From a virus, in IMG/VR virus record IMGVR_UViG_3300012036_000004, positions 1 to 64,000 of that record: a DNA stretch of 64,000 bases. One strand, written 5' to 3'. Below the pieces are notes generated by a model. The model did no database searches, had not been told where the DNA came from, and saw only the letters and a list, made by a program, of their open reading frames with translations. Shown here piece after piece: positions 3,432 through 62,925 of this stretch. The stretch's first letter is position 1. Every line of letters starts with the position of its first letter. A program made the position numbers and the translations under genes.

Positions 3432-3642
3432 GGTGGCCAACGCAATGGCTCGCTACACGAACGCAGGACGCGCTCTGTACATGGCGCACCTGCATGCGAC
3501 TCGCGCAGGGCAGCCCGTCAGCAAATCTGAGAAAGCAAAGCTGCAGAAGGAAGTGCAGCAGGCTTCGGAGCACCTACTGAAGGTCTGCAGCCTGGAGGCG
3601 GTGTCAGAGTCGGAACTGCTTCAGGCGTTGATCTCCGAATAG
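3424..3642 (+). CDS. Small helical hypothetical protein (72 aa)
   Basis: GAGG upstream; ATG overlaps end of HU gene; lies within track ORF 3361-3642. Confidence 0.6.
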   Translation: MDEVANAMARYTNAGRALYMAHLHATRAGQPVSKSEKAKLQKEVQQASEHLLKVCSLEAVSESELLQALISE

Positions 3643-3655
3643 TGACCCCCGTTTA

Positions 3656-3699
3656 CGGTATAAGATAATGATAGCGACACACAGCATTGGCTGAGTCGC
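3656..3699 (+). promoter_or_regulatory. Phage promoter motif copy 1 plus leader hairpin
   Basis: CGGTATAAGATAATGATA followed by GCGAC..CAGC-ATTG-GCTG..GTCGC hairpin; motif recurs at 41834 and 42214. Confidence 0.65.
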
Positions 3700-3739: not shown

Positions 3740-3835
3740 ATGTACACGCACACCCACCGAACTCCGACGAACATCATCATCATCGACGTAGCACAGCCGT
3801 GGCTCGAGATTGAGCCACCGGACGATGAAAAATGA
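3740..3835 (+). CDS. 31-aa microprotein MYTHTHRTPTNIIIIDVAQPWLEIEPPDDEK
   Basis: AGGGAG RBS directly downstream of the promoter motif; below ORF-track cutoff. Confidence 0.45.
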   Translation: MYTHTHRTPTNIIIIDVAQPWLEIEPPDDEK

Positions 3836-33328: not shown

Positions 33329-36300
33329 TTACCGCTTCCAGAACGGTGACGCAACAGCGCTACCGTTCTGGGAAGATTGCTGCGTCTTCATTCGATGCAG
33401 CTCTCGTGCGGGGTAGTGGCCGGACCGCACAGAGAAGTCTTGTTTCATTTGCGTTGGCAGACCGGGTCGCTGCTGTTGCTGTGCGCGAGCCTGCTCTGCG
33501 GCGAACTGCTGCTGCTGCCACATCTGACGCAATTGAGGAGAGTGCTGCTCCCACTCCGCTCTTGCCGTACCCAATGCGTCTTCTGCAAGGTTAAGTCGGG
33601 CGAGGTACGGATGGCTCTGCATCGAACCCCATACGGCGTCGGCACTCCGATCTCCGTACTGCGCAGCCTGACCCCACGCGTTGGGGTTCGTGCGCATCTG
33701 CTGCGGCGAGGGTCGGGCCGCCATTCGCTGTCCACCGGGAGGCTGACCTTGTGTTGGAGGCTGACCTTGTGTTGGAGGCTGACCTTGTGTTGGAGGCTGA
33801 TAGTTCGGGTCGATTTTCCGTCCGATGGCTTTTCCGGCTGCGGTGAACGGTGCCGCAAATGCGCCGCCGGAAAGCATCCCGAAGGGCGACCCGATGGCCC
33901 ACCCCAGCGAGTCGCCCAACGTGCCGCCGATATTCTCCAGCTTGGACTGCCCTTCGACGTCAGGGGCGTTGGCGGCTTCATGCACCATGGCCGCCGGCAT
34001 CCCGTACGCCATGCCCTTGTTCAATACGTCCATCGAGACGGGCAGGACCATACCACCGTATCCCGCATCCACGTTGGGGTTTCGCGCATTTCGCCAGGCA
34101 CGCATCACGTCCGGGTCGATCGCCATCTCTCCGTGAAGCAACCCGCCCCGCCCGAAGATGCCGCCCATCTGGGCACGCTGCTTCATTATCTTGAGGGGGT
34201 TCTGCCCGATCGACACGTCGCTGGCGCCGCGGGCAATGCGTCGCCCCAACCCTGGTCGCGCCGCCGCGTACTGCTGCGCCACGTCGGGGGTGAACATCTT
34301 TGCAGCCGCCGGATTGACGTTCTCCAAATCCACCTTGGCTCGAGCGAAGTCGGAGAGCGCTTTTCCGTGTGTCTCTTCGAACGCTTTCAAGCGTTCTCCG
34401 AATGCTTGGGCCGATTCATCCGCGCCTCGTCGCGGTACATTCTCCACTGCCTCGCGAGTGAATTGAGACAAGTTCAGGTGTGGATTGCGGCTCGCCTGCT
34501 GCGCCTCCTGGAGCGCGCCGCCGATGTTCTTGAAGGCCTTCTCATTGGAGTCGAGCGTTCGAACGAATCGCGCACCCTCGTCAGTGAGTTGGTTATTCTG
34601 AATCAGGTTCGCCCGAGACATGAAATCGTCGGGGAGTCGTTTCATACGGCGCGCAGCGTCGAGTGCCGCTGTGTCAATTCCGCCAGCCGTCCAGGGCGCA
34701 TCCGAGATCATGCGTAGGGCCTCGTCACCTTTGGAGGCGACCTGCTCCGCGAACTCATCACCCGACCCGACCAAAATGCGTTTCAAAAGACCAGCTTTGC
34801 TCGCGATCTTTTCCACGGCACCGCCGTCCGCAGCGTATTTCCCTTGTAGCCCCGTGCCGAACGGAGCGCCGATCGCGTAGGCAGGAACAGGACTGGTCGA
34901 CGCAATGTCGGTGGTCGAACCAAACCCTGCGCCTTCTACCAAGGTGCGCTTGAGGTAGCGGTGCGACAGACGAGACATCCAGTCGTCGTTGAGCAGCGGC
35001 GCCTGGATCATGGACTTCATGATAGGCGTCGTCACAGTAGGGAGGTTGGATACACTCACCGAGGCAATGCCGTTGTTCTTGAGCTCAGCTTGTACAGACG
35101 GCGTGATGCGTGTGCCTGTCGAGAAGTGCAGCGTCTGCTCTGCCAGGTAGTGACCCTTCGCTTTGCTCACCGGCACGCTCTTGCCGGCCTTTGACATGCG
35201 CTTCTGGACTTCGGTGTACGGAACGATGTCGCCACGCAGGAACTTGTCGGTCGGGTCTTCCTCGACCCGCACGTGCTTCATGGCGTTTCGAGCCAGTAAC
35301 TCCGTATGGCGACGGTCAATGTCCACGCCTTGGCGGCGGTACAGGTCTGTCAGTTGGTTCGACAGGTACACGCGGCCCGCGCCGATTCCCTTGTGTTTTA
35401 CGACGGCGTTCGGAAGTGCGACGCCGTCAGACAGTGCGTCACCCGCTTCGACGATGTCACCCTGTTTGACGATCGGCTGCAATCGCGGCGGAGTGTAGTA
35501 ATTCTTGCCGGCAACACGGATGTGCCACCCGCCCTGCGGCGCTTTCTTCACCGACTCGACGCGGCCGTCGTGTTCTGTGATAGCCGCCTTGTCTTGGAAC
35601 GATTTCGGGACTTCGGTGAGCGTACGAAACCCCGTGAGACCCGTGAGCTCGGTTGCGCCCTGGCCCTTTCCTTTGGCGAGTCGAACGCCGTGCTTGGCGT
35701 TTAGCGCGAACTGCGTCAACGGTTCGGTCATCGCCTGTGCGCTTCGTGCGCCGACATTCGTTCCGACCTGATGCGGTTTGCCCCACTCGTTGAGTCCCAC
35801 ACACTTCTGGCACACTCCATCATGGGCTTCGCATGCCGTGGGGCTTCGAACCAAAACCTTCGGTTTGTTGGCCTTTTTCAGCTTGTTGACGACGTCAGAT
35901 GTAACGAGGGTGTTCCGGGATACGGGACCCTCATCTCGCGCGAGGTAGCGGTCTTGCACCTGGTCTGTCACGGGAAGAAGAATCCCGCCTCTCGTGCCGC
36001 AGTCAGCTTGCGTCACCACCAGGTCGTCCATGTTGTTCATGACGACTTTGGCGACCATACCCGGCTCGACAACAGCGCCCGAGGAAGCGATCGCGTTTCG
36101 ACGTGATTCTACGCCGGTCACCCACGCGTCTGCCGGGTTGACTCCCTGCGAGTACGACTTGGTCACGAGCCACGGTGTCGCCTGGCCCTTGTTCATCGCG
36201 AGGACGGGTGACGCAACAATCTTCATGAGCTGCGCAATGGAGCCTCTGCCGCCTGACTTGGCCATGATGGTCATGTCGGAAGGATGATTCTCCGTGGCGG

Positions 36301-36640
36301 TGACCATCTTGTCCTGCGTCTCGAGCAGGATCTTTCGCTTCTCTTCGTCTGACTTGGCGGCTTTGATGCGACGAAGCGCGTCTTTCATGACAGGGTCGCG
36401 CTGTTTGTAGTCAGGCGCAATGTCATCCAGTCCCACCGAGATCCCTTCCAGGGTCGCAACTTCGTCGCCCAGTGACTTGAGTTTCATCACCGTCTTGACG
36501 TAAGTGTCCGGGTCCGACTTCGCGAGCTCCGTCATCTGCTTCTTGAGGATGCCTTTGGTCACCGGACCGTCCATCCTCATGTCGCCGGGAAGCGTCTCAT
36601 TGAGAAGGAAGTGCCCCAGAGTTTGATTGTCATCAGGCAC
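33329..36640 (-). CDS. RNA polymerase beta' C-terminal subunit fused to a ~490-aa Gly/Ala/Gln-rich domain
   Basis: SGGRGS; bridge-helix region; DCGT; RSPTAC...VCQKC Zn site; trigger loop AQAMTEPLTQ..L..KH; GGAGG RBS before GTG 36640. Confidence 0.9.
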   Translation of the reverse strand: MPDDNQTLGHFLLNETLPGDMRMDGPVTKGILKKQMTELAKSDPDTYVKTVMKLKSLGDEVATLEGISVGLDDIAPDYKQRDPVMKDALRRIKAAKSDEEKRKILLETQDKMVTATENHPSDMTIMAKSGGRGSIAQLMKIVASPVLAMNKGQATPWLVTKSYSQGVNPADAWVTGVESRRNAIASSGAVVEPGMVAKVVMNNMDDLVVTQADCGTRGGILLPVTDQVQDRYLARDEGPVSRNTLVTSDVVNKLKKANKPKVLVRSPTACEAHDGVCQKCVGLNEWGKPHQVGTNVGARSAQAMTEPLTQFALNAKHGVRLAKGKGQGATELTGLTGFRTLTEVPKSFQDKAAITEHDGRVESVKKAPQGGWHIRVAGKNYYTPPRLQPIVKQGDIVEAGDALSDGVALPNAVVKHKGIGAGRVYLSNQLTDLYRRQGVDIDRRHTELLARNAMKHVRVEEDPTDKFLRGDIVPYTEVQKRMSKAGKSVPVSKAKGHYLAEQTLHFSTGTRITPSVQAELKNNGIASVSVSNLPTVTTPIMKSMIQAPLLNDDWMSRLSHRYLKRTLVEGAGFGSTTDIASTSPVPAYAIGAPFGTGLQGKYAADGGAVEKIASKAGLLKRILVGSGDEFAEQVASKGDEALRMISDAPWTAGGIDTAALDAARRMKRLPDDFMSRANLIQNNQLTDEGARFVRTLDSNEKAFKNIGGALQEAQQASRNPHLNLSQFTREAVENVPRRGADESAQAFGERLKAFEETHGKALSDFARAKVDLENVNPAAAKMFTPDVAQQYAAARPGLGRRIARGASDVSIGQNPLKIMKQRAQMGGIFGRGGLLHGEMAIDPDVMRAWRNARNPNVDAGYGGMVLPVSMDVLNKGMAYGMPAAMVHEAANAPDVEGQSKLENIGGTLGDSLGWAIGSPFGMLSGGAFAAPFTAAGKAIGRKIDPNYQPPTQGQPPTQGQPPTQGQPPGGQRMAARPSPQQMRTNPNAWGQAAQYGDRSADAVWGSMQSHPYLARLNLAEDALGTARAEWEQHSPQLRQMWQQQQFAAEQARAQQQQRPGLPTQMKQDFSVRSGHYPARELHRMKTQQSSQNGSAVASPFWKR
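33738..33800. repeat. 18-nt tandem repeat x3 (QPPTQG)
   Basis: GGAGGCTGACCTTGTGTT repeated. Confidence 0.9.
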
Positions 36641-37292
36641 CGTACCCTCCAACGCCAGGGTTTCTCAGTTTCTTCGTTACGTTCACTCCGTCCGACAAAG
36701 ACCACGCGGTTCCGCCGGCCGCCAGTGCTTTGCCGGGCGTGCCCCGCGCCACTTCGGATGCCCGGTGACCAACGTTCGACATCATGCGTCGACCCGGAGA
36801 CATGCCTTCAGTCTTCGCCGCGTGTGTTGCAGCTCGCTCTGCTTTGGCTGTTTGAGACTTCACCGCGCTTGCCTGACGTCGGTTGGAGAAGAAGTTTCGA
36901 CTCTTCTTTCCGAAGTTGCTACTCCCTTTTCCGCCAGCTTTCCCAACCCCTTTGATGGCTTTCCCAACCCCTTTGATGACTTTCCCAACCCCTTTGGCGA
37001 AAAATTTCCCGCCCTGAATCAGCGGACTCAGTAACGCGATTTTCTCCATGTCCTCCGGAGTTGGGTGAAGCAGTGCTTGACGGAGCATTGCGGTCTTGAT
37101 GGAGGGGGCACCCATATCGATGCCCAGACGAGACGCGGCGTCCTGTCCGAACAGGGACGTGGGTTCACCCCACGTGAGCGGTTCGAGCCCATACAGGTTA
37201 TCGCCTTTGAGCTCCCGAATACCTTTGGGCTCGGAAGGCTCTTCCGTGATTCCCTCGAGCAGTTCTTTGACTCCGGTGATCTTCTTTTCCAT
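36633..37292 (-). CDS. Protein between the RNAP genes: acidic N-terminus, cationic amphipathic C-terminus
   Basis: TAATG coupling; IKTA and EKIA motifs; 21-nt repeat encoding KGVGK(V/A)I. Confidence 0.7.
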   Translation of the reverse strand: MEKKITGVKELLEGITEEPSEPKGIRELKGDNLYGLEPLTWGEPTSLFGQDAASRLGIDMGAPSIKTAMLRQALLHPTPEDMEKIALLSPLIQGGKFFAKGVGKVIKGVGKAIKGVGKAGGKGSSNFGKKSRNFFSNRRQASAVKSQTAKAERAATHAAKTEGMSPGRRMMSNVGHRASEVARGTPGKALAAGGTAWSLSDGVNVTKKLRNPGVGGYGA

Positions 37293-40200
37293 TAGGTCCT
37301 CTGAATCTTAACGGGGGTGCTCATCTTGATTTCGCCGCGTTTGTACGCTGCCATCGCATCGGCTTTCGAGTCAAAGACGCGCGTCTCGCCTTGCGGACCC
37401 TCTCGAGTTGCCATGTACGTCCCGATCAGCGCTTCGTGTGCCGGGAAGACCATGAGGTCATCCTTGGATACATCGCCGAGAAGAAGGTTGGACAGCGTCA
37501 TGCTCTTCGACTCAGATACGGCGGCGTCTGCCACAGGGACATGCAGCTGCACGGTGTCGCCATCATAGTCGGCGTTCATGCCTTGTTCTGCAAATGGATT
37601 CAGTCGAACGGTCTTGCCCGGGATGAGTTTCGGATACGCAGAAATGAGCCCAAATCGGTGCAGCGTGGGGGCTCGGTTCATGACGACAGGCCGTTTCTTG
37701 ACTTCGGTACCCAGGATGCGTCGAGCCGCCGGGTCTCGGTTCTTCACTTTCTTGCGGGCGTCTGCTGCGCGGTGCCCTGACTGGACCAGTCCTTTGACGA
37801 GGAAAGGTTCGTACATCTTCCAGGCCATCTCCTCAGGCATACCGACCTCGTCCATGTTCAGGTTGAGATCCGGAGCAATGGTTGCGCGGCCCGACAGGTC
37901 CTGACGTCGCTTCATCATGCGCGACTGGAAGTACCCATGCTTCGGCGAGCCGGTGCCTGTGATTTGCTGAAGATGCCCCTTCGTTCCTCGCCCCTGGTTC
38001 TGCGGAGACACGGGGTCATTGAAGCCGAACAAAGCACCGACCGAGTCGTGCAGGTGTTTGCGTCGCTTCTTCCGATCGTCATCGGTGTCGAGCTCCTCGG
38101 GCGTCTCGGTAATGGACTCGTTTGCCAGCATCACGTCTCGGTACAGGTAGTTTGCATCCGAGATGAGCATGGTCCCGTCGCTCGTGGGCATGATGGGGCG
38201 AATCGTCGGAGGCACGACCGGTACCTTCGACAGCACATAGGCGTCGCCCGCGGTCAGGTCTTCTTTGAGCAGAGCGTCGATGTACTTGATGCGCTTGACG
38301 GCATCGTCGAGCGTCGCGCCTCGAGCCGTTTTAATCTCCTGCTTCAGCTTCCGGCGTTCGCTCTTCAGGTCGATCTCGTTGAGCTTCTTTTTGACCTCAG
38401 ACGCCCCCTTGTCATCTCGGAATGCGCGGAATTCATTCTTCGTCATCCCCAGCATCCGACGGGCCGGGTCTTCGAACACCGGATTCACCACCGGCTCCGC
38501 CAGGTTAATCTTGGAGTACTTCGTGCCGGTCAGTCCGCCTGTCAGCGCGGGGTCAAACAGCCCTCCCTCCTCAGGCTGGAGCTGTGTAACGCCCTGGCGT
38601 TTCCGCGGCGTCACGAGCAGTGCGTTCTTCACTTCGGTCTTTGCCATCGAGTCGATGTCGCGGTCGGTGAGCGGGGCCAGGCTGTGTCGTGAACCCTTCT
38701 TGTTCACTTTGATGCCTGCTCCGTGCAGCATGTGATTGAACTTCTCGTAAGCGAAGTTCTCGCTCGGCATCGGAGCTGGAAGACCCAGTTGAATGCGGCG
38801 CCAGTACTCGTCGTTACGCTGTCCTTTAACGACCGCAGCCTCCTGCAGCACGTTTCGAGCGTTGTGCGCAAGGAGTGCGTTGAACTCCATCTTGCCCAGG
38901 GACTTCGCCCCCTCGTCACCGCCTTTGGTGGGCTGCATGTTGGAGTCGTACCCGGGGCCAATACCGCGAGCAGCGAAGTTGGTGTCGGTCGACTTGAACA
39001 GTTTGTAGGTGTACTGCCTCCCCACGTGGATGCCTGGGATTTTCTTTCCCGACATCGGGTCGTACACGGTTTCCTTGTCCTTGAGTCCGTTGTCCTTGAG
39101 TAGCTTCTTCGCCCACTTCACGTTGTCGTGGTCGGCGAACTGATCGATGATGACTGGCTTGCCTGTCTTTTCAGCGACCTTGCCGACCGCCGTCTCGAGA
39201 ATCTGACTGGGGTTGATTCGAGTGATCACGCCTGCAGACGTCATCAACACGTCGATCGGCTTGCCGGCCTCGTCTTTCACCATCTGGTCGTCCGGGACGA
39301 TCTTAGACACCACGCCTTTGTTCCCGTAACGCCCGGCCATTTTGTCCCCTACACCCATTGGCGCGTCCATCTTCACCGTGACGGTGATTTGTTTGTTGGT
39401 GACTGCGACGTCAATCACGGTGCCGGGATGGTCGTGATCCCACGTAATGGCCGCGTCCCGGTAAGGCTTCACCAGTGACTTGTGCAAGTTCCCCAGCATC
39501 TGCTGCTGGGCAGATGCCTGATCTTTTCGGATCGCAGAGATGAGGAGCTCACCGTGGTCCACCTGCTGGCCCTTCTTGATGATTCCCTTGGAGTCGAGCC
39601 GTTCGTACTCCGGACGCGAGTAGCGCGAGCCGAAGTAGGCCCGGTGCTTGTCCTTGTCTGTGGAGACCCCCTGGTCCAGCGACAGCGTCTCTTTGTACAT
39701 GTGCCTCGAAGTCAGCTTCTTGGACGCAGACTCCGAGATCACGACAGCGTCGTTGGAGTTGTAACCGTAGTAGGGCATGTATCCCACCGACAGATTCTTC
39801 CCCAGAGCAAGCGTTCCGTTGCGAGTGAAGTTGGTCTCCGCCAGGGCCTGCCCCTGTTGGACTCGCTGGCCTTTCTTCACGTTGACGTCGTCGTGCATGT
39901 ACGTCTTGGACATCAAGGGGAAGTCCGTAGCGTAAGGCACCTTGACGAGATCGTCTGTCTTGGCCGCGGCGGTCTTCATCCATGCAGAAAGGGATTTTTC
40001 CTGAGGCCCTTCAGCGCTTCGCTTGGAGCGATCAGGTCGGATGTAGATGTAGTCTTTGTCGATCTTCTCCACAGTGCCAGCGGTCGGCGACATGGGAACG
40101 ATGAGCTCACCCATCTGTTTCTCGACAGTCTTCTCCGGGTCCCACGACCGAATTTGTACATAAGGCTCGTCTCGATCAATGAGCGGCAACGCCTGGGTGT

Positions 40201-41746
40201 GCATCTTGGACCCCATGATGTTTCGGTTGCCCTGCGCGCTGTTCAAAAACGGCACGAGATTCGTCGTCGGGCTGTACATCCGGGAGGGGTCGGGGACTTC
40301 ATAGTCCACCTCCGAAGAGTTTACTGAGTAAACCTGTCCGTTCTTCAGTGCGTCGATCTTCTTGCGCCCGCCCAGCTTCTGGTTCGGGAACGCGACGGTT
40401 TTCTCCATCAGCTTCGACGCCTTCACGTACTCGAGTTTCCCGTTCTTGGTGTTGCGCATCTGGGCGTACATGTTTCCTTCGTCGTCACGCCGAGCGAACA
40501 TCGAAGTTCGCACATCGATGCCTGCTTTCCCTGATTCGGGCGTTCGCACCGGGTCAAGGATACCCAGATGGGAGTGATGCACGTCTCGAGCTTCGTCTGG
40601 TACGGCCAAAGTCGACGAAATACCCCCCTCACCTAGCGAGGTGACTTTAACGGCATGATCAACGATCTCCATCGGATTTATCTGCATCGGCGTCGCAGTG
40701 AGTGCGGACGTCGTCACAAAAGAGTGGAGGGATTTCGTGAAAGGAGACGACGGCATGATGTCCGAGACCTTCGGATTGTCCCCGGCCTTCCGAAGACGCA
40801 TCTTGACCTTTCGAGAGATGTCTGGCGCTGCGTCTTTCTCAACTCGTTCCTTCAAAAACGACTCAACCGTGTGGATGGTCTTGAACGCAGTCGAGTCTCG
40901 ATCGTCCTGCTCCTCTTTGTCGTTGTAGACGTTCAGAATCTTCTGACTGGCTCGCAGAAGCGTCTTGGGTTCGACCTTAGAGAACTTCTGACCCAGCGTG
41001 ATGTTGGTGACCTCCGGATCGAGCTGCGTACGGTCGTACGAGTCCCGGATCGCCTCCAACATCTCCTGGTGATTCGGGTTGTCCTCCTGCAGAAAGCTTG
41101 GAATGAGCTTTTTGTAGAGCTTTCGGACGTACCGAGCTTCCTTGCCGGCGGCGTACTTCTTGTTGAGTTGAAGTACGTCCTTGCCCCAATACTTGGTGAT
41201 CTCTGTATCCCGCACCCCCAGGGCTGACAGGGCCCCGTAGAGCGGAATCTTGCTTGAGCCGTACTCCATGAAGATGAGACCGCGGTCTGGGTCGAGCGAC
41301 AACCGGAAGTTACGTCCCTTGGCGAGGTTGAATGCGGACTCGAGCTCTCCGTTGCCGCGCTGCCGTGTGTAGACCCCGGGCTTGATTCGAACCTGGTTGG
41401 AGACGGTGTAGTCATTGCCCTTCATGATGAAGGTGTGCCGCTCTGTGAAGTACGGGATCTGCGCCAGAGTTCGCTTGCTCGTATCCAGTATCTTACCCGT
41501 CTTCTTGTCACGAACAACGACCGTACCCTTCATCGGCTCGACCAAGGTCTTGCCCTCCAGGATGGCTTTCTTCTGCTCGGAGGGAGAGAACACTTTGTTC
41601 GTCGGTTCGACGTCCTGAATCTCCACAATGTGCTTATCTGTCTCGACCCGAAAGTCCTGAATCCCCTTCCTGACGTGGTCTCGAATCATCTCACGCCGTT
41701 CTTCAGCGCGCCCCATCAGGGGATAGAGTGTTGGGTTTTTCGCCAC
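37292..41746 (-). CDS. RNA polymerase beta - beta' N-terminal fusion (catalytic subunit)
   Basis: Beta motifs: RTPESG, MGSKMHTQA, GYNSNDA, GDKMAGRYGNKGV, RINPSQ, GKMEFNAL. Beta' motifs: PVVPP.IRP, D.SGRATI, NRAPTLHR, NADYDGD. Confidence 0.95.
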   Translation of the reverse strand: MAKNPTLYPLMGRAEERREMIRDHVRKGIQDFRVETDKHIVEIQDVEPTNKVFSPSEQKKAILEGKTLVEPMKGTVVVRDKKTGKILDTSKRTLAQIPYFTERHTFIMKGNDYTVSNQVRIKPGVYTRQRGNGELESAFNLAKGRNFRLSLDPDRGLIFMEYGSSKIPLYGALSALGVRDTEITKYWGKDVLQLNKKYAAGKEARYVRKLYKKLIPSFLQEDNPNHQEMLEAIRDSYDRTQLDPEVTNITLGQKFSKVEPKTLLRASQKILNVYNDKEEQDDRDSTAFKTIHTVESFLKERVEKDAAPDISRKVKMRLRKAGDNPKVSDIMPSSPFTKSLHSFVTTSALTATPMQINPMEIVDHAVKVTSLGEGGISSTLAVPDEARDVHHSHLGILDPVRTPESGKAGIDVRTSMFARRDDEGNMYAQMRNTKNGKLEYVKASKLMEKTVAFPNQKLGGRKKIDALKNGQVYSVNSSEVDYEVPDPSRMYSPTTNLVPFLNSAQGNRNIMGSKMHTQALPLIDRDEPYVQIRSWDPEKTVEKQMGELIVPMSPTAGTVEKIDKDYIYIRPDRSKRSAEGPQEKSLSAWMKTAAAKTDDLVKVPYATDFPLMSKTYMHDDVNVKKGQRVQQGQALAETNFTRNGTLALGKNLSVGYMPYYGYNSNDAVVISESASKKLTSRHMYKETLSLDQGVSTDKDKHRAYFGSRYSRPEYERLDSKGIIKKGQQVDHGELLISAIRKDQASAQQQMLGNLHKSLVKPYRDAAITWDHDHPGTVIDVAVTNKQITVTVKMDAPMGVGDKMAGRYGNKGVVSKIVPDDQMVKDEAGKPIDVLMTSAGVITRINPSQILETAVGKVAEKTGKPVIIDQFADHDNVKWAKKLLKDNGLKDKETVYDPMSGKKIPGIHVGRQYTYKLFKSTDTNFAARGIGPGYDSNMQPTKGGDEGAKSLGKMEFNALLAHNARNVLQEAAVVKGQRNDEYWRRIQLGLPAPMPSENFAYEKFNHMLHGAGIKVNKKGSRHSLAPLTDRDIDSMAKTEVKNALLVTPRKRQGVTQLQPEEGGLFDPALTGGLTGTKYSKINLAEPVVNPVFEDPARRMLGMTKNEFRAFRDDKGASEVKKKLNEIDLKSERRKLKQEIKTARGATLDDAVKRIKYIDALLKEDLTAGDAYVLSKVPVVPPTIRPIMPTSDGTMLISDANYLYRDVMLANESITETPEELDTDDDRKKRRKHLHDSVGALFGFNDPVSPQNQGRGTKGHLQQITGTGSPKHGYFQSRMMKRRQDLSGRATIAPDLNLNMDEVGMPEEMAWKMYEPFLVKGLVQSGHRAADARKKVKNRDPAARRILGTEVKKRPVVMNRAPTLHRFGLISAYPKLIPGKTVRLNPFAEQGMNADYDGDTVQLHVPVADAAVSESKSMTLSNLLLGDVSKDDLMVFPAHEALIGTYMATREGPQGETRVFDSKADAMAAYKRGEIKMSTPVKIQRT

Positions 41747-41833
41747 GTGGCCTCCTGGGAAGTTCCGCCATTATACGCAGTACTACCGCGCATTCCAGCG
41801 CCGGAAAACGATCAAAAATCCACCCCCTCGATG

Positions 41834-41910
41834 CGGTATAAGATATTGATACAGAAAACACGCTCTCGACGACACTGCAATCCTGCAGCGAACTCTCCCA
41901 TAAGAGCGTA
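41834..41910 (+). promoter_or_regulatory. Phage promoter motif copy 2 plus structured leader
   Basis: CGGTATAAGATATTGATA; outer stem ACGCTCT/AGAGCGT; inner CTGCA-ATCC-TGCAG. Confidence 0.7.
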
Positions 41911-41927
41911 CGGAACAGGGAAAACAC

Positions 41928-42104
41928 ATGGAACATCTCGACCAGCCGCAGACGAAGCCGAAATCGACCTTCAACAAGGTCGTGGATGGTGTTCTCAAAG
42001 GCGCGAAGATTGGCGCCGGAGTCTGGCTGGCGACCAGCATTGTGAAGCGAGACTGGATGGGGGCATTCAATGCCGTCACCGCGCTCGTCGTGCTCAGGGA
42101 CTAG
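41928..42104 (+). CDS. 58-aa protein (not in ORF track)
   Basis: AGGGA RBS; MEHLDQPQTKPKSTFNKVVDGVLKGAKIGAGVWLATSIVKRDWMGAFNAVTALVVLRD; terminator follows. Confidence 0.65.
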   Translation: MEHLDQPQTKPKSTFNKVVDGVLKGAKIGAGVWLATSIVKRDWMGAFNAVTALVVLRD

Positions 42105-42129
42105 GGTCTCTAAGCACGTCATTTCACCC

Positions 42130-42159
42130 AAAAACCCCCTATATCGGGGGTTATTTTTT
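42130..42159 (+). terminator. Intrinsic (possibly bidirectional) terminator
   Basis: AAAAACCCCC-TATATC-GGGGGTT then ATTTTTT. Confidence 0.75.
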
Positions 42160-42213
42160 GCCCTAAAAAGGGCCCAAAAACCCCCTAAAATCACAAATAT
42201 AGGGGTCTTTTTT

Positions 42214-42289
42214 GGTATAAGATATTGACACGAAAAACACGCTCTGACAACTACATCAATTCTGATGGAACGTCTCCCATGAGTGTGTA
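42214..42289 (+). promoter_or_regulatory. Phage promoter motif copy 3 plus structured leader
   Basis: GGTATAAGATATTGACA; outer stem ACACGCTC/GAGTGTGT; inner CATCA-ATTC-TGATG. Confidence 0.7.
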
Positions 42290-42307
42290 TCAGACAAAGG
42301 TAAAACT

Positions 42308-43348
42308 ATGTCAGTCGCAATCAACGTACTCTCATCGCTCTTCAGCAGTTCCACGCTCGCCTCGGCGGCGTGGAGTGGATTAAGTACACCGGTTCAGGCG
42401 GCCATCGCCTTGGCCGGAATCGGCAGCGCTGGGTGCACCGCCCACTCCGTGGGCAAAAGAACCATCCTTTCGGTAGCGAACTACCGAAAGAACGGTGCAA
42501 AGGTGTTCCTCCCGTGTGGAAACACCGGGAGGGTCAGCAAAGTCGGCTTCGATTTCATCGAGGCCATCCGAGACCATGACGACACCATCGTCACGGTCCG
42601 CGGAGACGACCTCGAGAATCTCCGAGACGCCGAATTCAAGCGTGATCCCGAGGCCGGAGCAAAGGCCCGGGAGCGCGTACAGGCACTCAGGTCGAAGACG
42701 ATCGGAGAACGCCGAAACGAGCGTCTGGGTCAAGACGATCGTCAGCTGTCGGACGTCAAGTACGACAACATCCAGCTCACCGGCGAGCTGGGGGCTGCGA
42801 AGCAGGTGATGAAAGACCAGCGCGCCAAGTTCGAGGCGCGTTTCGAGAATTTCCGCGAGGAAATCTTCGGGCAGATGGACGCTGTGACTCCTGAGGACGA
42901 CGAAGAGGTCGTTCTCGACCTCGGAGACGAGGAATCGGACGCTAAGCCCTCAAACGAGGGCGACGCCTCCTCACCCGAGGAAGGTGCTGACGAGTCCCCC
43001 ACCCAGGAGGACGAAGTCAACGAGAGCACTCCGGCTCTCAAGTCCGACGCCATCAAGGCGAAGGTCAAAGCGGCTGCCGCCGTCGCTGAATCTGCTGACG
43101 AGGCCGTAGAGGCCGCGGAAGCGGAGTTGGATGAAGCACTCGAGGAAGCGGTCGCGACTGCGGCCGCGTCGGATGAGTCGGACGAGTCGGAAGACTCGGA
43201 CGAGTCCAGCGAGTCCACGGAGGACTCGGAGAACAAGGCCAATGCGGCCGCGTCGGATGAGTCGAAAGGCTCAGAAGACAGCGACCCCGCTTCGGCGGAG
43301 GTCGCACCGTCGGGAAAGCAACAGGCGAAGGGGGAGGCGACGGCGTAG
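42308..43348 (+). CDS. Putative early protein: hydrophobic N-terminus, coiled coil, acidic tail
   Basis: AAAGG RBS after promoter motif; D/E/S-rich C-terminal half. Confidence 0.75.
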   Translation: MSVAINVLSSLFSSSTLASAAWSGLSTPVQAAIALAGIGSAGCTAHSVGKRTILSVANYRKNGAKVFLPCGNTGRVSKVGFDFIEAIRDHDDTIVTVRGDDLENLRDAEFKRDPEAGAKARERVQALRSKTIGERRNERLGQDDRQLSDVKYDNIQLTGELGAAKQVMKDQRAKFEARFENFREEIFGQMDAVTPEDDEEVVLDLGDEESDAKPSNEGDASSPEEGADESPTQEDEVNESTPALKSDAIKAKVKAAAAVAESADEAVEAAEAELDEALEEAVATAAASDESDESEDSDESSESTEDSENKANAAASDESKGSEDSDPASAEVAPSGKQQAKGEATA

Positions 43349-43813: not shown

Positions 43814-43875
43814 CCCTGTCCCTGCGTGGGACAGGGGCAGGCACGACGCCCCCGACTCTGGGGGCGTCTTTTTTT
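43814..43875 (+). terminator. Double hairpin/terminator between convergent genes
   Basis: CCCTGTCCC/GGGACAGGG, then GACGCCCCC/GGGGGCGTC followed by T7. Confidence 0.8.
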
Positions 43876-60509: not shown

Positions 60510-60805
60510 TGCCTATTTACGCCCTCGCCATGGAGACACCCGGTCGCTACATAGTCGGCCAGAGCAGTGCCGCCCCTGACGCTATCCTGTCGACGAACAC
60601 CGTCGCTCTTCAGGACGCCGCTCACCTCACGGTGCTCAAAGAACAGAGCATCCTGACGCCGATCGACGTGCTCGATAACTTCCACGCGAAGGTGTCGAGC
60701 TACATTGGCTTCGGGGTGCTCAACGAAGACTTCAGTTCCATCTACGAGTCGTGGCTCGAGATGCACAAAAATCCGCCGGATTTTGAGGTACAAGAGGGTG
60801 AATGA
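60509..60805 (+). CDS. Hypothetical protein
   Basis: TGATG coupling to the polymerase gene. Confidence 0.65.
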   Translation: MPIYALAMETPGRYIVGQSSAAPDAILSTNTVALQDAAHLTVLKEQSILTPIDVLDNFHAKVSSYIGFGVLNEDFSSIYESWLEMHKNPPDFEVQEGE

Positions 60806-60828
60806 ACTAGTACAGACACTTAGCTGTG

Positions 60829-61262
60829 GGCGATGTTTCGTCGCCATATCATAGCAGTACTTTAGTACTGGCCGCCGGCTTGAAGCCGAGCACCAGGCCG
60901 CCTCGAGCTCACTACTTCGGCGGAAATGGTAGTTCATTCATACGCACGCGCTAGACACTGAGGTGATCAAGGACGATCCCTCGAGGCGATGTTTCGTCGC
61001 CACATTTTGTTTCACTATCTCTTCACCTGGTTTAGCAACCAGGTGTAGAATTAGTAGCGCACTTGAGTTGGCACCGATCTCGGTGGGCGATGTTTCGTCG
61101 CCATATGAAGTAGGACCGGGAGCAAACGCGAGCGAGGTCTTCCTGGCCACGCGGTTTTCGTCGCATACGCTCCTCAACCCAGCTAGGCCTGGAAGACCAG
61201 GCTCAGCACAGCAACTCACCTCTGATTGGCTCCCGTTTGTGGAGGGCGATGTTTCGTCGCCA
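60829..61262. repeat. Four copies of GGCGATGTTTCGTCGCCA in a structured intergenic region
   Basis: Identical 18-mers at 60829, 60985, 61086 and 61245. Confidence 0.9.
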
Positions 61263-61329
61263 TATCTCCCAGACACTTTCGTGTCTGAGCTTTTCTCGAG
61301 CTCCTCCGGGAGCTGCGTGATCATGGCAA

Positions 61330-62925
61330 TCAGAGAGACATTGGGTAGAACGCTACCTGACCGGTGGCAATCTGCATCGCAAGGCGCCCGAATACCTGGG
61401 CGTGAAGAGCATCGTCAGGGGTGGCCGGGAAGCAGTTCCAAACCCGGCGCCCCTGACCCTGTTTCGTAACTTCCTCATACTCAGCGAGGATATCCTGAAT
61501 CGCGAGCTTCATCTGCTTCTGCTTCGCAAAGACGACGCGGCCTCGCTTGTAGTCCATCATCATCGAATCGATGGCTGCCGTCCGGTCCGCCATATACCGA
61601 TCTGTGTTGTTCCATCGGAGCATCTTCGAGATCGAGCCGTACTGAATCTGAACGACCTTGTTTGCCCCAAGCGCGTCGACCAGCATTGCGTTGGAGACTG
61701 CGCCAACTCCGGCGTCACCAGCGACCAGAGAGACCTTGTAGTCTCGACAGATCTCGATGATTTCCTTCACATCATTAACCGGGTTCGAGGTCGGGAAGAT
61801 GTGGTAGTACAGCGTCTTCATCTGGCCGTTCGGCAGCAAACCCCAGACGTGAATCGCTGTTCGAGACGTGAACGTCGAGGAGCCGCCTCCCGACCAGTCG
61901 ACCCCTGCGACAATCTTCGAGACATGCTTGAAGATTTTGGGGTCTGGCTTGCGCTCAATCGTGTAGTTCCGGCAGAGCGCTTCGAGCTCTTCGAGCGACA
62001 CCATGCGCGTGCCGATCGCGTCGCTCATCCCCAGTACCTCGTTCCTGAACTGCGAGTCTGGGTAGGTGTTGTACTTGTGAAGGATACGGTCCCACCGGGC
62101 CTGCACCTCATTGTTCTGTGGCATGATGAGCTGCGGGATGTGGAACCCGCGGACGTAGGCGCCCGGATTCATGCTGTACCACTGCCCGTCTCGAGGCCGC
62201 AGCTTCTTGCCGCAGTTGACGCAGATAACGCCCGACTTACCGATCGAGCGGACCGTGGTCACGTAGTTCCATTTGTTGCACCCCGTGCACTTCATCATCC
62301 ACACGTCTTGCGTGGATTGCTGCCAAAGGAACTCCATGGTGTTTTCCATCGACTTCGGTGTCCCGAAGTACCAGGTCCACCCGTGCTCCGACTCTGCCAT
62401 GCACTCGTTGACGACCGGCACCACCGACTTGTAAATGATGTCCTGGACCTCGTCCCATACGACCTGGTCCGCCGAGACGCCACGTGCGCGGTCCGGGTCG
62501 TCCTGGGCGTACGAAAGCACGACCTCCGACCCGTTCGAGAAGTGTTTCATCAGCACGTTCATCGGCATCGATGTGCTGGTGTAATTCTTGGAGATCAACG
62601 GAGAATAGGTGATCGCCTTCTGGAGACGGGAGTGCGAAAACCGAGTCGTCTGCTGCTGTGTAGGCGACACAAACAGCGTTCGAAAGTAGTCCTGCGAAAC
62701 CGAGTTCGTCAGGATCATGTTGCAGCCAGTAGTCGACTTAGCGACCTGGCGGCCGCATTTCATCACCAGCTCTTGGTGGTACCCATCGTAGATGTCTCGG
62801 TAAAACGGGTAGTTCTCAAACGAGAACTTCTTCCCGTCCAGTACCACCATAGCTTCCGTGAGTTGAGACCGGGTAAACTGCCCGACACTCTCTTCCTCGC
62901 GTCTAATCGACTGGAACACACTCAT
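61330..62925 (-). CDS. Terminase large subunit (lambda GpA-like)
   Basis: Walker A GRQVAKST; Walker B WDEVQD; GTPK; CxxC...CxxC; nuclease GVDW...DD.LHA; start uncertain. Confidence 0.9.
   Translation of the reverse strand: MSVFQSIRREEESVGQFTRSQLTEAMVVLDGKKFSFENYPFYRDIYDGYHQELVMKCGRQVAKSTTGCNMILTNSVSQDYFRTLFVSPTQQQTTRFSHSRLQKAITYSPLISKNYTSTSMPMNVLMKHFSNGSEVVLSYAQDDPDRARGVSADQVVWDEVQDIIYKSVVPVVNECMAESEHGWTWYFGTPKSMENTMEFLWQQSTQDVWMMKCTGCNKWNYVTTVRSIGKSGVICVNCGKKLRPRDGQWYSMNPGAYVRGFHIPQLIMPQNNEVQARWDRILHKYNTYPDSQFRNEVLGMSDAIGTRMVSLEELEALCRNYTIERKPDPKIFKHVSKIVAGVDWSGGGSSTFTSRTAIHVWGLLPNGQMKTLYYHIFPTSNPVNDVKEIIEICRDYKVSLVAGDAGVGAVSNAMLVDALGANKVVQIQYGSISKMLRWNNTDRYMADRTAAIDSMMMDYKRGRVVFAKQKQMKLAIQDILAEYEEVTKQGQGRRVWNCFPATPDDALHAQVFGRLAMQIATGQVAFYPMSL

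Follow-up and report, generated by a model that had tools for sequence, protein, structure and literature searches.

Predicted sigma-like promoters and a paired candidate leader element beside the fused RNA polymerase gene of an uncultured phage

The window analysed here is the first 64,000 bases (positions 1-64000) of a 101,735-bp IMG/VR virus record (G000) that is estimated to be 57% complete. The record encodes a two-gene bacterial-type RNA polymerase (RNAP), with beta fused to the N-terminal part of beta' in one gene and the C-terminal half of beta' (beta'C) in the other. Two of the three promoters described below, B and C, sit in the divergent intergenic region that adjoins the fused RNAP gene. 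The features are as follows, in positions of the window.

3634-3699, plus strand: promoter A, with TCCGAATA, 14 nt and then GGTATAAGATAATGATA at 3657-3673
33329-36652: beta'C, the C-terminal half of beta', the next large gene after the fused gene (Pfam)
37292-41746, minus strand: fused RNAP beta and N-terminal beta', 1484 aa (Pfam Rpb2_6 1.5e-50, Rpb1_2 3.8e-26, Rpb1_5 6.8e-16)
41812-41819, plus strand: -35-like element TCAAAAAT of promoter B (position weight matrix, PWM)
41835-41851, plus strand: core of promoter B, the -10-like GGTATAAG followed by ATATTGATA with a conserved TG
41855-41909, plus strand: leader element B (folds, alignment and pair counts)
41928-42104, plus strand: 58-aa ORF, first gene behind promoter B, with no Pfam family
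42133-42159, plus strand: intrinsic terminator closing the B unit, AACCCCC-TATATC-GGGGGTT and then a T run (terminator scan)
42182-42213, plus strand: second hairpin, CCCCTA/TAGGGG and then TCTTTTTT (read from the sequence)
42214-42230, plus strand: core of promoter C, with a T before it (TGGTATAAG, extended -10-like)
42234-42288, plus strand: leader element C (folds, alignment and pair counts)
42308-43348, plus strand: 346-aa orphan ORF, first gene behind promoter C
43845-43868, plus strand: next terminator after the C unit (terminator scan)

B and C are paralogous terminator-promoter-leader-ORF cassettes. The B unit runs from its promoter and leader through the 58-aa ORF to a terminator, after which the second hairpin follows, and the C unit runs from its promoter and leader through the 346-aa ORF to the terminator at 43845. 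The loop of the second hairpin is 12 nt long, more than the terminator scanner accepts, and contains the -35-like element of C, TCACAAAT (42191-42198); the T run of this hairpin directly adjoins promoter C. The coding sequences behind the two promoters are unrelated to each other. The 346-aa ORF has a single other homologue, P0002 (72% identity, on a 1492-bp ENA contig), among 5.8 billion proteins searched, and none in IMG/VR. The 2.5-kb region has no blastn match among cultured phages. All three promoters in the window fire rightward, away from or opposite to the block of virion and RNAP genes.

The sequence-only reading had noted a motif that occurs twice, each time followed by shared blocks, and this is borne out. 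The exact 17-mer GGTATAAGATAWTGAYA lies at 41835-41851 (..TTGATA, copy B) and at 42214-42230 (..TTGACA, copy C), both on the plus strand, and AAAACACGCTCT and TCTCCCAT stand behind both. The genome-wide scan that it had proposed adds a third plus-strand copy, A (GGTATAAGATAATGATA at 3657-3673, one mismatch), which is also upstream of a gene, and finds no other in the entire 101,735-bp record. With up to three mismatches the 17-mer has 3 matches, against 0.01 expected from shuffles, and TATAAGAT is restricted to the same three sites in the record. Each copy has a ribosome binding site (RBS) and ATG 70-81 nt downstream (ATGs at 3740, 41928 and 42308). Searching IMG/VR for the exact 17-mer gave 57 single, unrelated matches, as expected by chance.

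Promoter A is directly followed by an unrelated hairpin, GCGAC...GTCGC (3674-3699), and then by a 31-aa ORF (3740-3835) that ends in WLEIEPPDDEK. A promoter at 119333 in the relative G002 leads to a 17-aa ORF (~119380) ending in WIEIEPPPEA, and a GTTTAC-n-GTAAAC hairpin lies behind both ORFs. The pair looks like a conserved micro-gene.

A weight matrix built from 17 sites of G000 and two relatives found via the RNAP, G001 and G002 (70% and 65% RNAP amino-acid identity to G000), gives the consensus TCAnAAAa-N14-tGGTATAAGAa-nn-TG. It has three conserved blocks, namely TCAnAAAa at -23 to -16 (counting from the first G of GGTATAAG), the core tGGTATAAGAa, and a TG four bases on. Scanning G000 with this matrix identified no additional strong site. 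From sigma-type spacing, the predicted start is G41848 or A41849 for promoter B and G42227 or A42228 for promoter C. The last base of the -10-like element is G in 17/17 of these sites and in 29/29 sites of the Salmonella phage Arash (see below), that is, in all 46 examined. A T precedes the GG in 11 of the 17 sites, and the G is invariant; in the window copy C has TGG, and copies A and B have CGG. The 17-mer is well supported as the core of what would be a phage-specific promoter, with the -10-like GGTATAAG often extended to TGGTATAAG.

The core is conserved, and strongly oriented, in relatives. GKTATAAG occurs 3 times forward and 0 times reverse in G000, 6 and 1 times in G001, and 10 and 0 times in G002 (reversed-pattern control 1/1, 0/1 and 3/1), which sums to 19 forward versus 1 reverse, and almost every copy has an RBS and ATG behind it. 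The equivalent intergenic regions flanking the RNAP gene in G001 and G002 lack the 17-mer but have GGTATAAG or GTTATAAG. One metagenome scan yielded 158 relatives with the fused beta-beta' RNAP, from sediments, lakes, soils and other sources, and their GC content spans 29-68%. Among the 66 metagenomic loci that have sequence upstream of the RNAP gene, 18 carry an exact, divergent GGTATAAG within 900 nt of that gene and none carries one in the same orientation, where about one is expected by chance; the GC content of these loci runs from 29% to 68%.

By RNAP, the closest cultured phages are Salmonella phage Arash and the Vibrio phages D69, D181 and D148. The RNAP of Arash (OQ632216.1) shows 35.8% identity over 98% of its length. 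The Arash genome has 30 copies of GGTATAAG on the strand that does not carry the virion genes and one on the other (controls 2 and 3). The Arash sites share the consensus GGTATAAGtAa.gTGtAa, behind which come a short leader and AGGAG; the -35-like box of Arash is not position-conserved, unlike that of the G000-G002 sites. G000, with three copies in 101.7 kb, has far fewer. Vibrio phage D69, whose RNAP is of the same family, shows no enrichment of GGTATAAG, so the motif is widespread in the family yet not universal. The literature search found no description of promoters of the fused beta-beta' polymerase phages.

The motif thus resembles early promoters read by phage-specific RNAPs of the phiKZ/AR9 type in lying near -10, being strand-specific, standing upstream of putative early units and being conserved in relatives. 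The sequence-only reading had called B and C early promoters for the phage RNAP. The promoter part stands (strand bias, 30:1 in Arash, 18/66 divergent), and that the phage RNAP is the reader is something we infer. Sigma70 needs a T at -7, one of the two bases that it flips out (PMC7598289). Mass spectrometry of Arash virions yielded more spectra for the RNAP beta protein Gp206 than for any other protein, and also detected beta' Gp216 and the 'sigma factor' Gp10; promoters are not mentioned in that paper (0 occurrences; PMC10585845). The invariant G at the T(-7) of sigma70, the conservation over 29-68% GC, and the RNAP and sigma-like protein in Arash virions make the phage's own two-gene bacterial-type RNAP, together with a sigma-like subunit, the most likely reader.

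A candidate for this subunit is encoded in the record, outside the window. Arash Gp10 matches Pfam Sigma70_r3 and has homologues in G000, G001 and G002 (E 1e-27 to 1e-28; G000 1.2e-28). The G000 homologue scores above the Pfam cut-off for Sigma70_r3 and aligns weakly to residues 413-498 of sigma70 in solved holoenzymes, a segment that we take to be about regions 2.4-3.0, the readers of the -10 element and the TG. Pfam Sigma70_r2 has no match in G000-G002, and the sigma-like gene was found only via Arash Gp10. The G000 protein (358 aa; G000:C1:~85965-87041, minus strand; L164:1270-2346:-) has a NUDIX hydrolase domain (Pfam 2.5e-11) at its N-terminus, fused to the Sigma70 region 3-like part, and a weak HTH at its C-terminus. 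Arash Gp10 (234 aa) has no NUDIX domain. A fusion of this kind might link initiation to the chemistry of the RNA 5' end.

The sites could instead be ordinary extended -10 promoters (TGnTATAAN) of the host sigma70, with the host polymerase serving the early genes and the phage RNAP acting only later. TGGTATAAG is compatible with TGn plus TATAA, the T being present ahead of GG in the 11 sites mentioned, and the motif shares with sigma70 extended -10 promoters (TGnTATAAT) the TG one base before the hexamer, the TATAA beginning and a similar spacing to the start. The RNAP gene lies on the virion-gene strand and could be a late product, and packaging of the RNAP in the virion is established, by mass spectrometry, for Arash alone. 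However, the hexamer reads TATAAG, with a G in every case where sigma70 requires the flipped-out T(-7). The upstream box is TCAnAAAa in place of TTGACA (optional in this class), and the scanner calls no sigma70 promoter at these positions. Host promoters have no need of the start-site TG, which is conserved here, and an identical 8-mer is retained from 29% to 68% GC and occurs 30 times in a Salmonella phage. The record's only two TATAAT hexamers are on the other strand and in a different context. Reading by host sigma70 is therefore quite unlikely. The most economical interpretation would be that TGGTATAAG is read by a packaged polymerase equipped with a sigma-like specificity factor.

Both of these TATAAT hexamers are part of GCGTATAATG on the minus strand (window 41770-41778 and G000:C1:~94555-94563). 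One copy lies 36 nt before the start codon of the RNAP gene, and in the same place G002 has GCGTATACT and G001 has GTGTAGACT; GCGTATAATG upstream of the RNAP gene is a candidate for a separate promoter of that gene. A single late-promoter motif was looked for on the minus strand and none was found. A second class of plus-strand motif, TTG[TA]GGTA[GC]AAG, occurs 2, 2 and 4 times forward in G000, G001 and G002 and 0 times reverse, and may be a middle promoter variant of GGTATAAG. Its copies in G000 are at 60783-60794 of the window (plus strand), directly preceding an ORF-poor stretch (60799-61335), and at G000:C1:65827.

Behind the cores of B and C the two leaders align without gaps over 62 columns, 38 of which are identical. 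Each is part of a 5' UTR of ~80 nt, and its central ~55 nt folds as an imperfect long hairpin with an outer stem of 7-8 bp, a middle helix of 3-5 bp and a 5-bp tip with the loop AUYC (AUCC or AUUC). The conserved AAAACACGCTCT occupies 41855-41866 in B and 42234-42245 in C, and the conserved unpaired TCTCCCAT occupies 41894-41901 and 42273-42280. The invariant single-stranded UCUCCCAU is on the 3' side of the hairpin. In the middle helix, GAC pairs with the UC of an invariant (G/C)UCUCCC. The stems end 18-19 nt ahead of the ATGs at 41928 and 42308, in agreement with the earlier statement that the structure ends shortly before the RBS.

The inner hairpins, CTGCA-ATCC-TGCAG in B (41875-41888) and CATCA-ATTC-TGATG in C (42254-42267), had been described as differing in sequence and keeping their pairing. 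This is confirmed, since all four substitutions in the tip stem form two full compensatory pair changes (U-A to A-U and G-C to U-A). The Monte Carlo chance of such an outcome is 0.005 for 24 random substitutions and 0.016 given four substitutions in ten stem positions; a covariation shuffle control (114/500) is uninformative with just two sequences. The outer stem pairs 41860-41866 with 41903-41909 in B (ACGCUCU/AGAGCGU) and 42237-42244 with 42281-42288 in C (ACACGCUC/GAGUGUGU), where it is shifted by 2 nt and includes one G-U pair. Its 5' arm AAAACACGCUCU is invariant, and in the register of B the C copy has one U-U mismatch. The outer stem is thus retained in both leaders, as had been proposed, but its one-sided changes and register shift do not amount to classical covariation.

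The stability of the 60-nt cores is modest, at -14.2 and -15.5 kcal/mol (z -2.6 and -2.9), and the whole leaders have z of about -1. The reverse strand of B has a stronger fold (-22.2 kcal/mol). Folding alone cannot identify the strand, as the reverse strand does at least equally well, and for this reason the G-U pairs were dropped as evidence for the RNA strand. Three other candidates were also rejected. A reverse-strand ORF from the ATG in ATGGGAGA has 29 codons in B and 9 in C and is not conserved, an upstream ORF in the leader is found in C only, and anti-Shine-Dalgarno pairing of UCUCCC with the RBS is absent from the predicted folds, its complement being missing in C.

The leader appears to be confined to this pair. 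A B/C covariance model, searched against 906 kb of related loci, recovered B and C alone, and Rfam cmscan of 41000-43000 with E up to 10 gave sub-threshold chance matches, none of them on the plus strand over the leaders. The pattern ACACGCTC-N25-45-TCTCCCAT has more than 112 chance matches in IMG/VR, and none is behind GGTATAAG. The proposal of a covarying leader has the two compensatory pairs in its favour (chance ~0.005-0.016), and is weakened by the two-sequence sample, the powerless shuffle control, the register change and the lack of another homologue in ~0.9 Mb of related DNA.

The likeness of the leaders may be a remnant of a duplication of the promoter cassette, or of gene conversion, with the hairpin incidental. 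There are two copies only, in one genome, with no homologue found elsewhere; the full leaders fold at z of about -1, and the covariation test on two sequences is uninformative. Against this, the likeness is confined to blocks. In the 15-nt promoter spacer that separates the -35-like box from the core, B and C agree at 2/15 positions, and the ORFs have fully diverged, a distribution limited to functional blocks that argues for selection on the leader. The inner-stem substitutions form compensating pairs (p ~0.016), and structured leaders are enriched behind this class of promoter, as set out next. A duplication remnant is thus an unlikely explanation, and we regard the B/C leader as a real conserved two-copy element for which the structural evidence is suggestive but underpowered.

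Downstream of the 17 promoters of G000-G002, the initial 60 nt are more strongly structured, with a mean z of -1.69 compared with -0.25 for random 60-mers (Mann-Whitney p 1e-5). The hairpins there have unrelated sequences and begin 1-16 nt past the predicted start, and U runs follow some of them in an attenuator-like manner (G001 23350, G002 155863). The leaders behind the Arash promoters are mostly short (median ~23 nt) and mostly unstructured. Since the hairpin sequences vary and the Arash leaders are short, the hairpins would belong to the transcripts and not to promoter recognition. In the GC-rich clade, structured leaders are the rule for promoters of this class. In B and C the outer stem stands 10-12 nt away from the predicted 5' end, farther than expected of a classical hairpin that protects the 5' end, and pure 5'-end protection would fit copy A better than B and C. 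In G002 (G002:C1:155274-155396, L080) the first promoter by the RNAP gene has behind it a long, perfect-looking hairpin of 45 nt, and no ORF before the next promoter, which lies 123 nt on; this may be a small RNA unit.

These observations also bear on whether the hairpin works at the DNA level, by extrusion or as an operator for recognition or shut-off (N4-style or a repressor site), which the sequence-only reading had allowed. Inverted repeats do adjoin a phage promoter here, a protein might bind the invariant block at about +8 to +19, and folding does not distinguish the strands. However, the hairpin is downstream of the predicted start and of the core, its sequence varies among promoters, and in Arash most leaders behind this promoter class are short, at ~23 nt, and leave no room for it. 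A single DNA-binding protein could not recognise both B and C, whose inner arms differ. N4-type promoters have their DNA hairpin upstream of the start and a single-subunit virion RNAP as reader; the polymerase here is multisubunit and not N4-like. A DNA hairpin within the promoter is highly improbable.

A nut-like antitermination site is another very unlikely candidate, in which CGCUCU would stand for boxA and the 5-bp hairpin after a spacer of ~8 nt for boxB, allowing the polymerase to pass the terminators at 42133-42213 and 43845. Lambda boxA is CGCTCTTA, and the CGCTCT of the leader is identical to its first six bases. A 5-bp hairpin follows 8 nt after CGCTCT, with a covarying stem and a semi-conserved loop, and terminators lie downstream of both units. 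However, the match ends at 6 nt, with C or G where boxA has U. Lambda nut sites present a single-stranded boxA, CGCUCUUA, and here CGCUCU alone matches and is paired as the 5' arm of the outer stem. Compared with lambda boxB, the 5-bp stem with compensatory changes is present, but the loop is a 4-nt AUYC and not a GNRA-like pentaloop. The block is not retained in the equivalent leaders of G001, G002 and L156, and neither of the two first ORFs appears to encode an Arg-rich N-like protein. Finally, boxA acts on the host RNAP via NusB and NusE, and these promoters look phage-specific.

On balance it is probable that the sites are phage-specific promoters read by the phage's own sigma-assisted RNAP, and that the B/C leader is an element acting at the level of the mRNA and not in promoter recognition. 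The phage RNAP with its sigma-like subunit would start rightward transcription at A, B and C. Since both RNAP and sigma-like factor travel in the Arash virion, these units would be the first to be transcribed after injection. The shared leader would then give the two immediate-early messages a common fate, through stability or through binding of one regulator. As a conjecture, the single-stranded UCUCCCAU and the AAAACAC tail form a putative binding site for a common factor. It is a rather remote prospect that the leader is a cis-acting RNA, either for antitermination or pausing of the phage polymerase or as the operator of an early RNA-binding regulator, coupled to TGGTATAAG-N4-TG promoters read by a packaged sigma. 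If so, infection would start by a route undescribed for any phage.

The early promoters of jumbo phages of the phiKZ/AR9 type are likewise short, conserved, AT-rich motifs near -10 upstream of early operons, and are phage-specific and recognisable by bioinformatics (PMC7598289). These phages also carry a polymerase of beta/beta' homologues in the virion, which in the fused beta-beta' family has been shown for Arash only. They differ in the sequence of the motif and in having 4-5 split subunits in place of the two-gene RNAP. The sigma-like promoter and the sigma region 3 homologue also set the present phage apart from phiKZ, for whose virion RNAP no sigma is known. Arash is similar in its RNAP, its Gp10 homologue and its GGTATAAG-N5-TG opposite the virion genes, and different in its short leaders. 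Sigma70 extended -10 promoters lack the constant final G, the TCAnAAAa box and the conserved start-site TG. T7-type cassettes, such as the phi10 leader, consist of a phage promoter and then a 5' stem-loop. B and C resemble these and lambda nutL/nutR in that a conserved hairpin is transcribed behind a phage promoter and would act in RNA, and resemble nutL/nutR also in being paired, paralogous sites behind two presumed early promoters, with candidate covarying stems. They have no sequence relation to either system, the hairpin lies 10-12 nt from the 5' end, the boxA likeness spans 6 nt and the polymerase is of another type.

Metagenomes commonly contain phages with the fused beta-beta' polymerase, and at least one such phage, Arash, is in culture. 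The paired B/C leader is a small, well-delimited candidate, on thin evidence, for how such phages handle their first messages. The promoter is sharply defined and sigma-like, with G for T at -7, and makes the transcription programme of the group directly testable. The GGTATAAG promoter may also serve as an annotation rule for early units in uncultured relatives.
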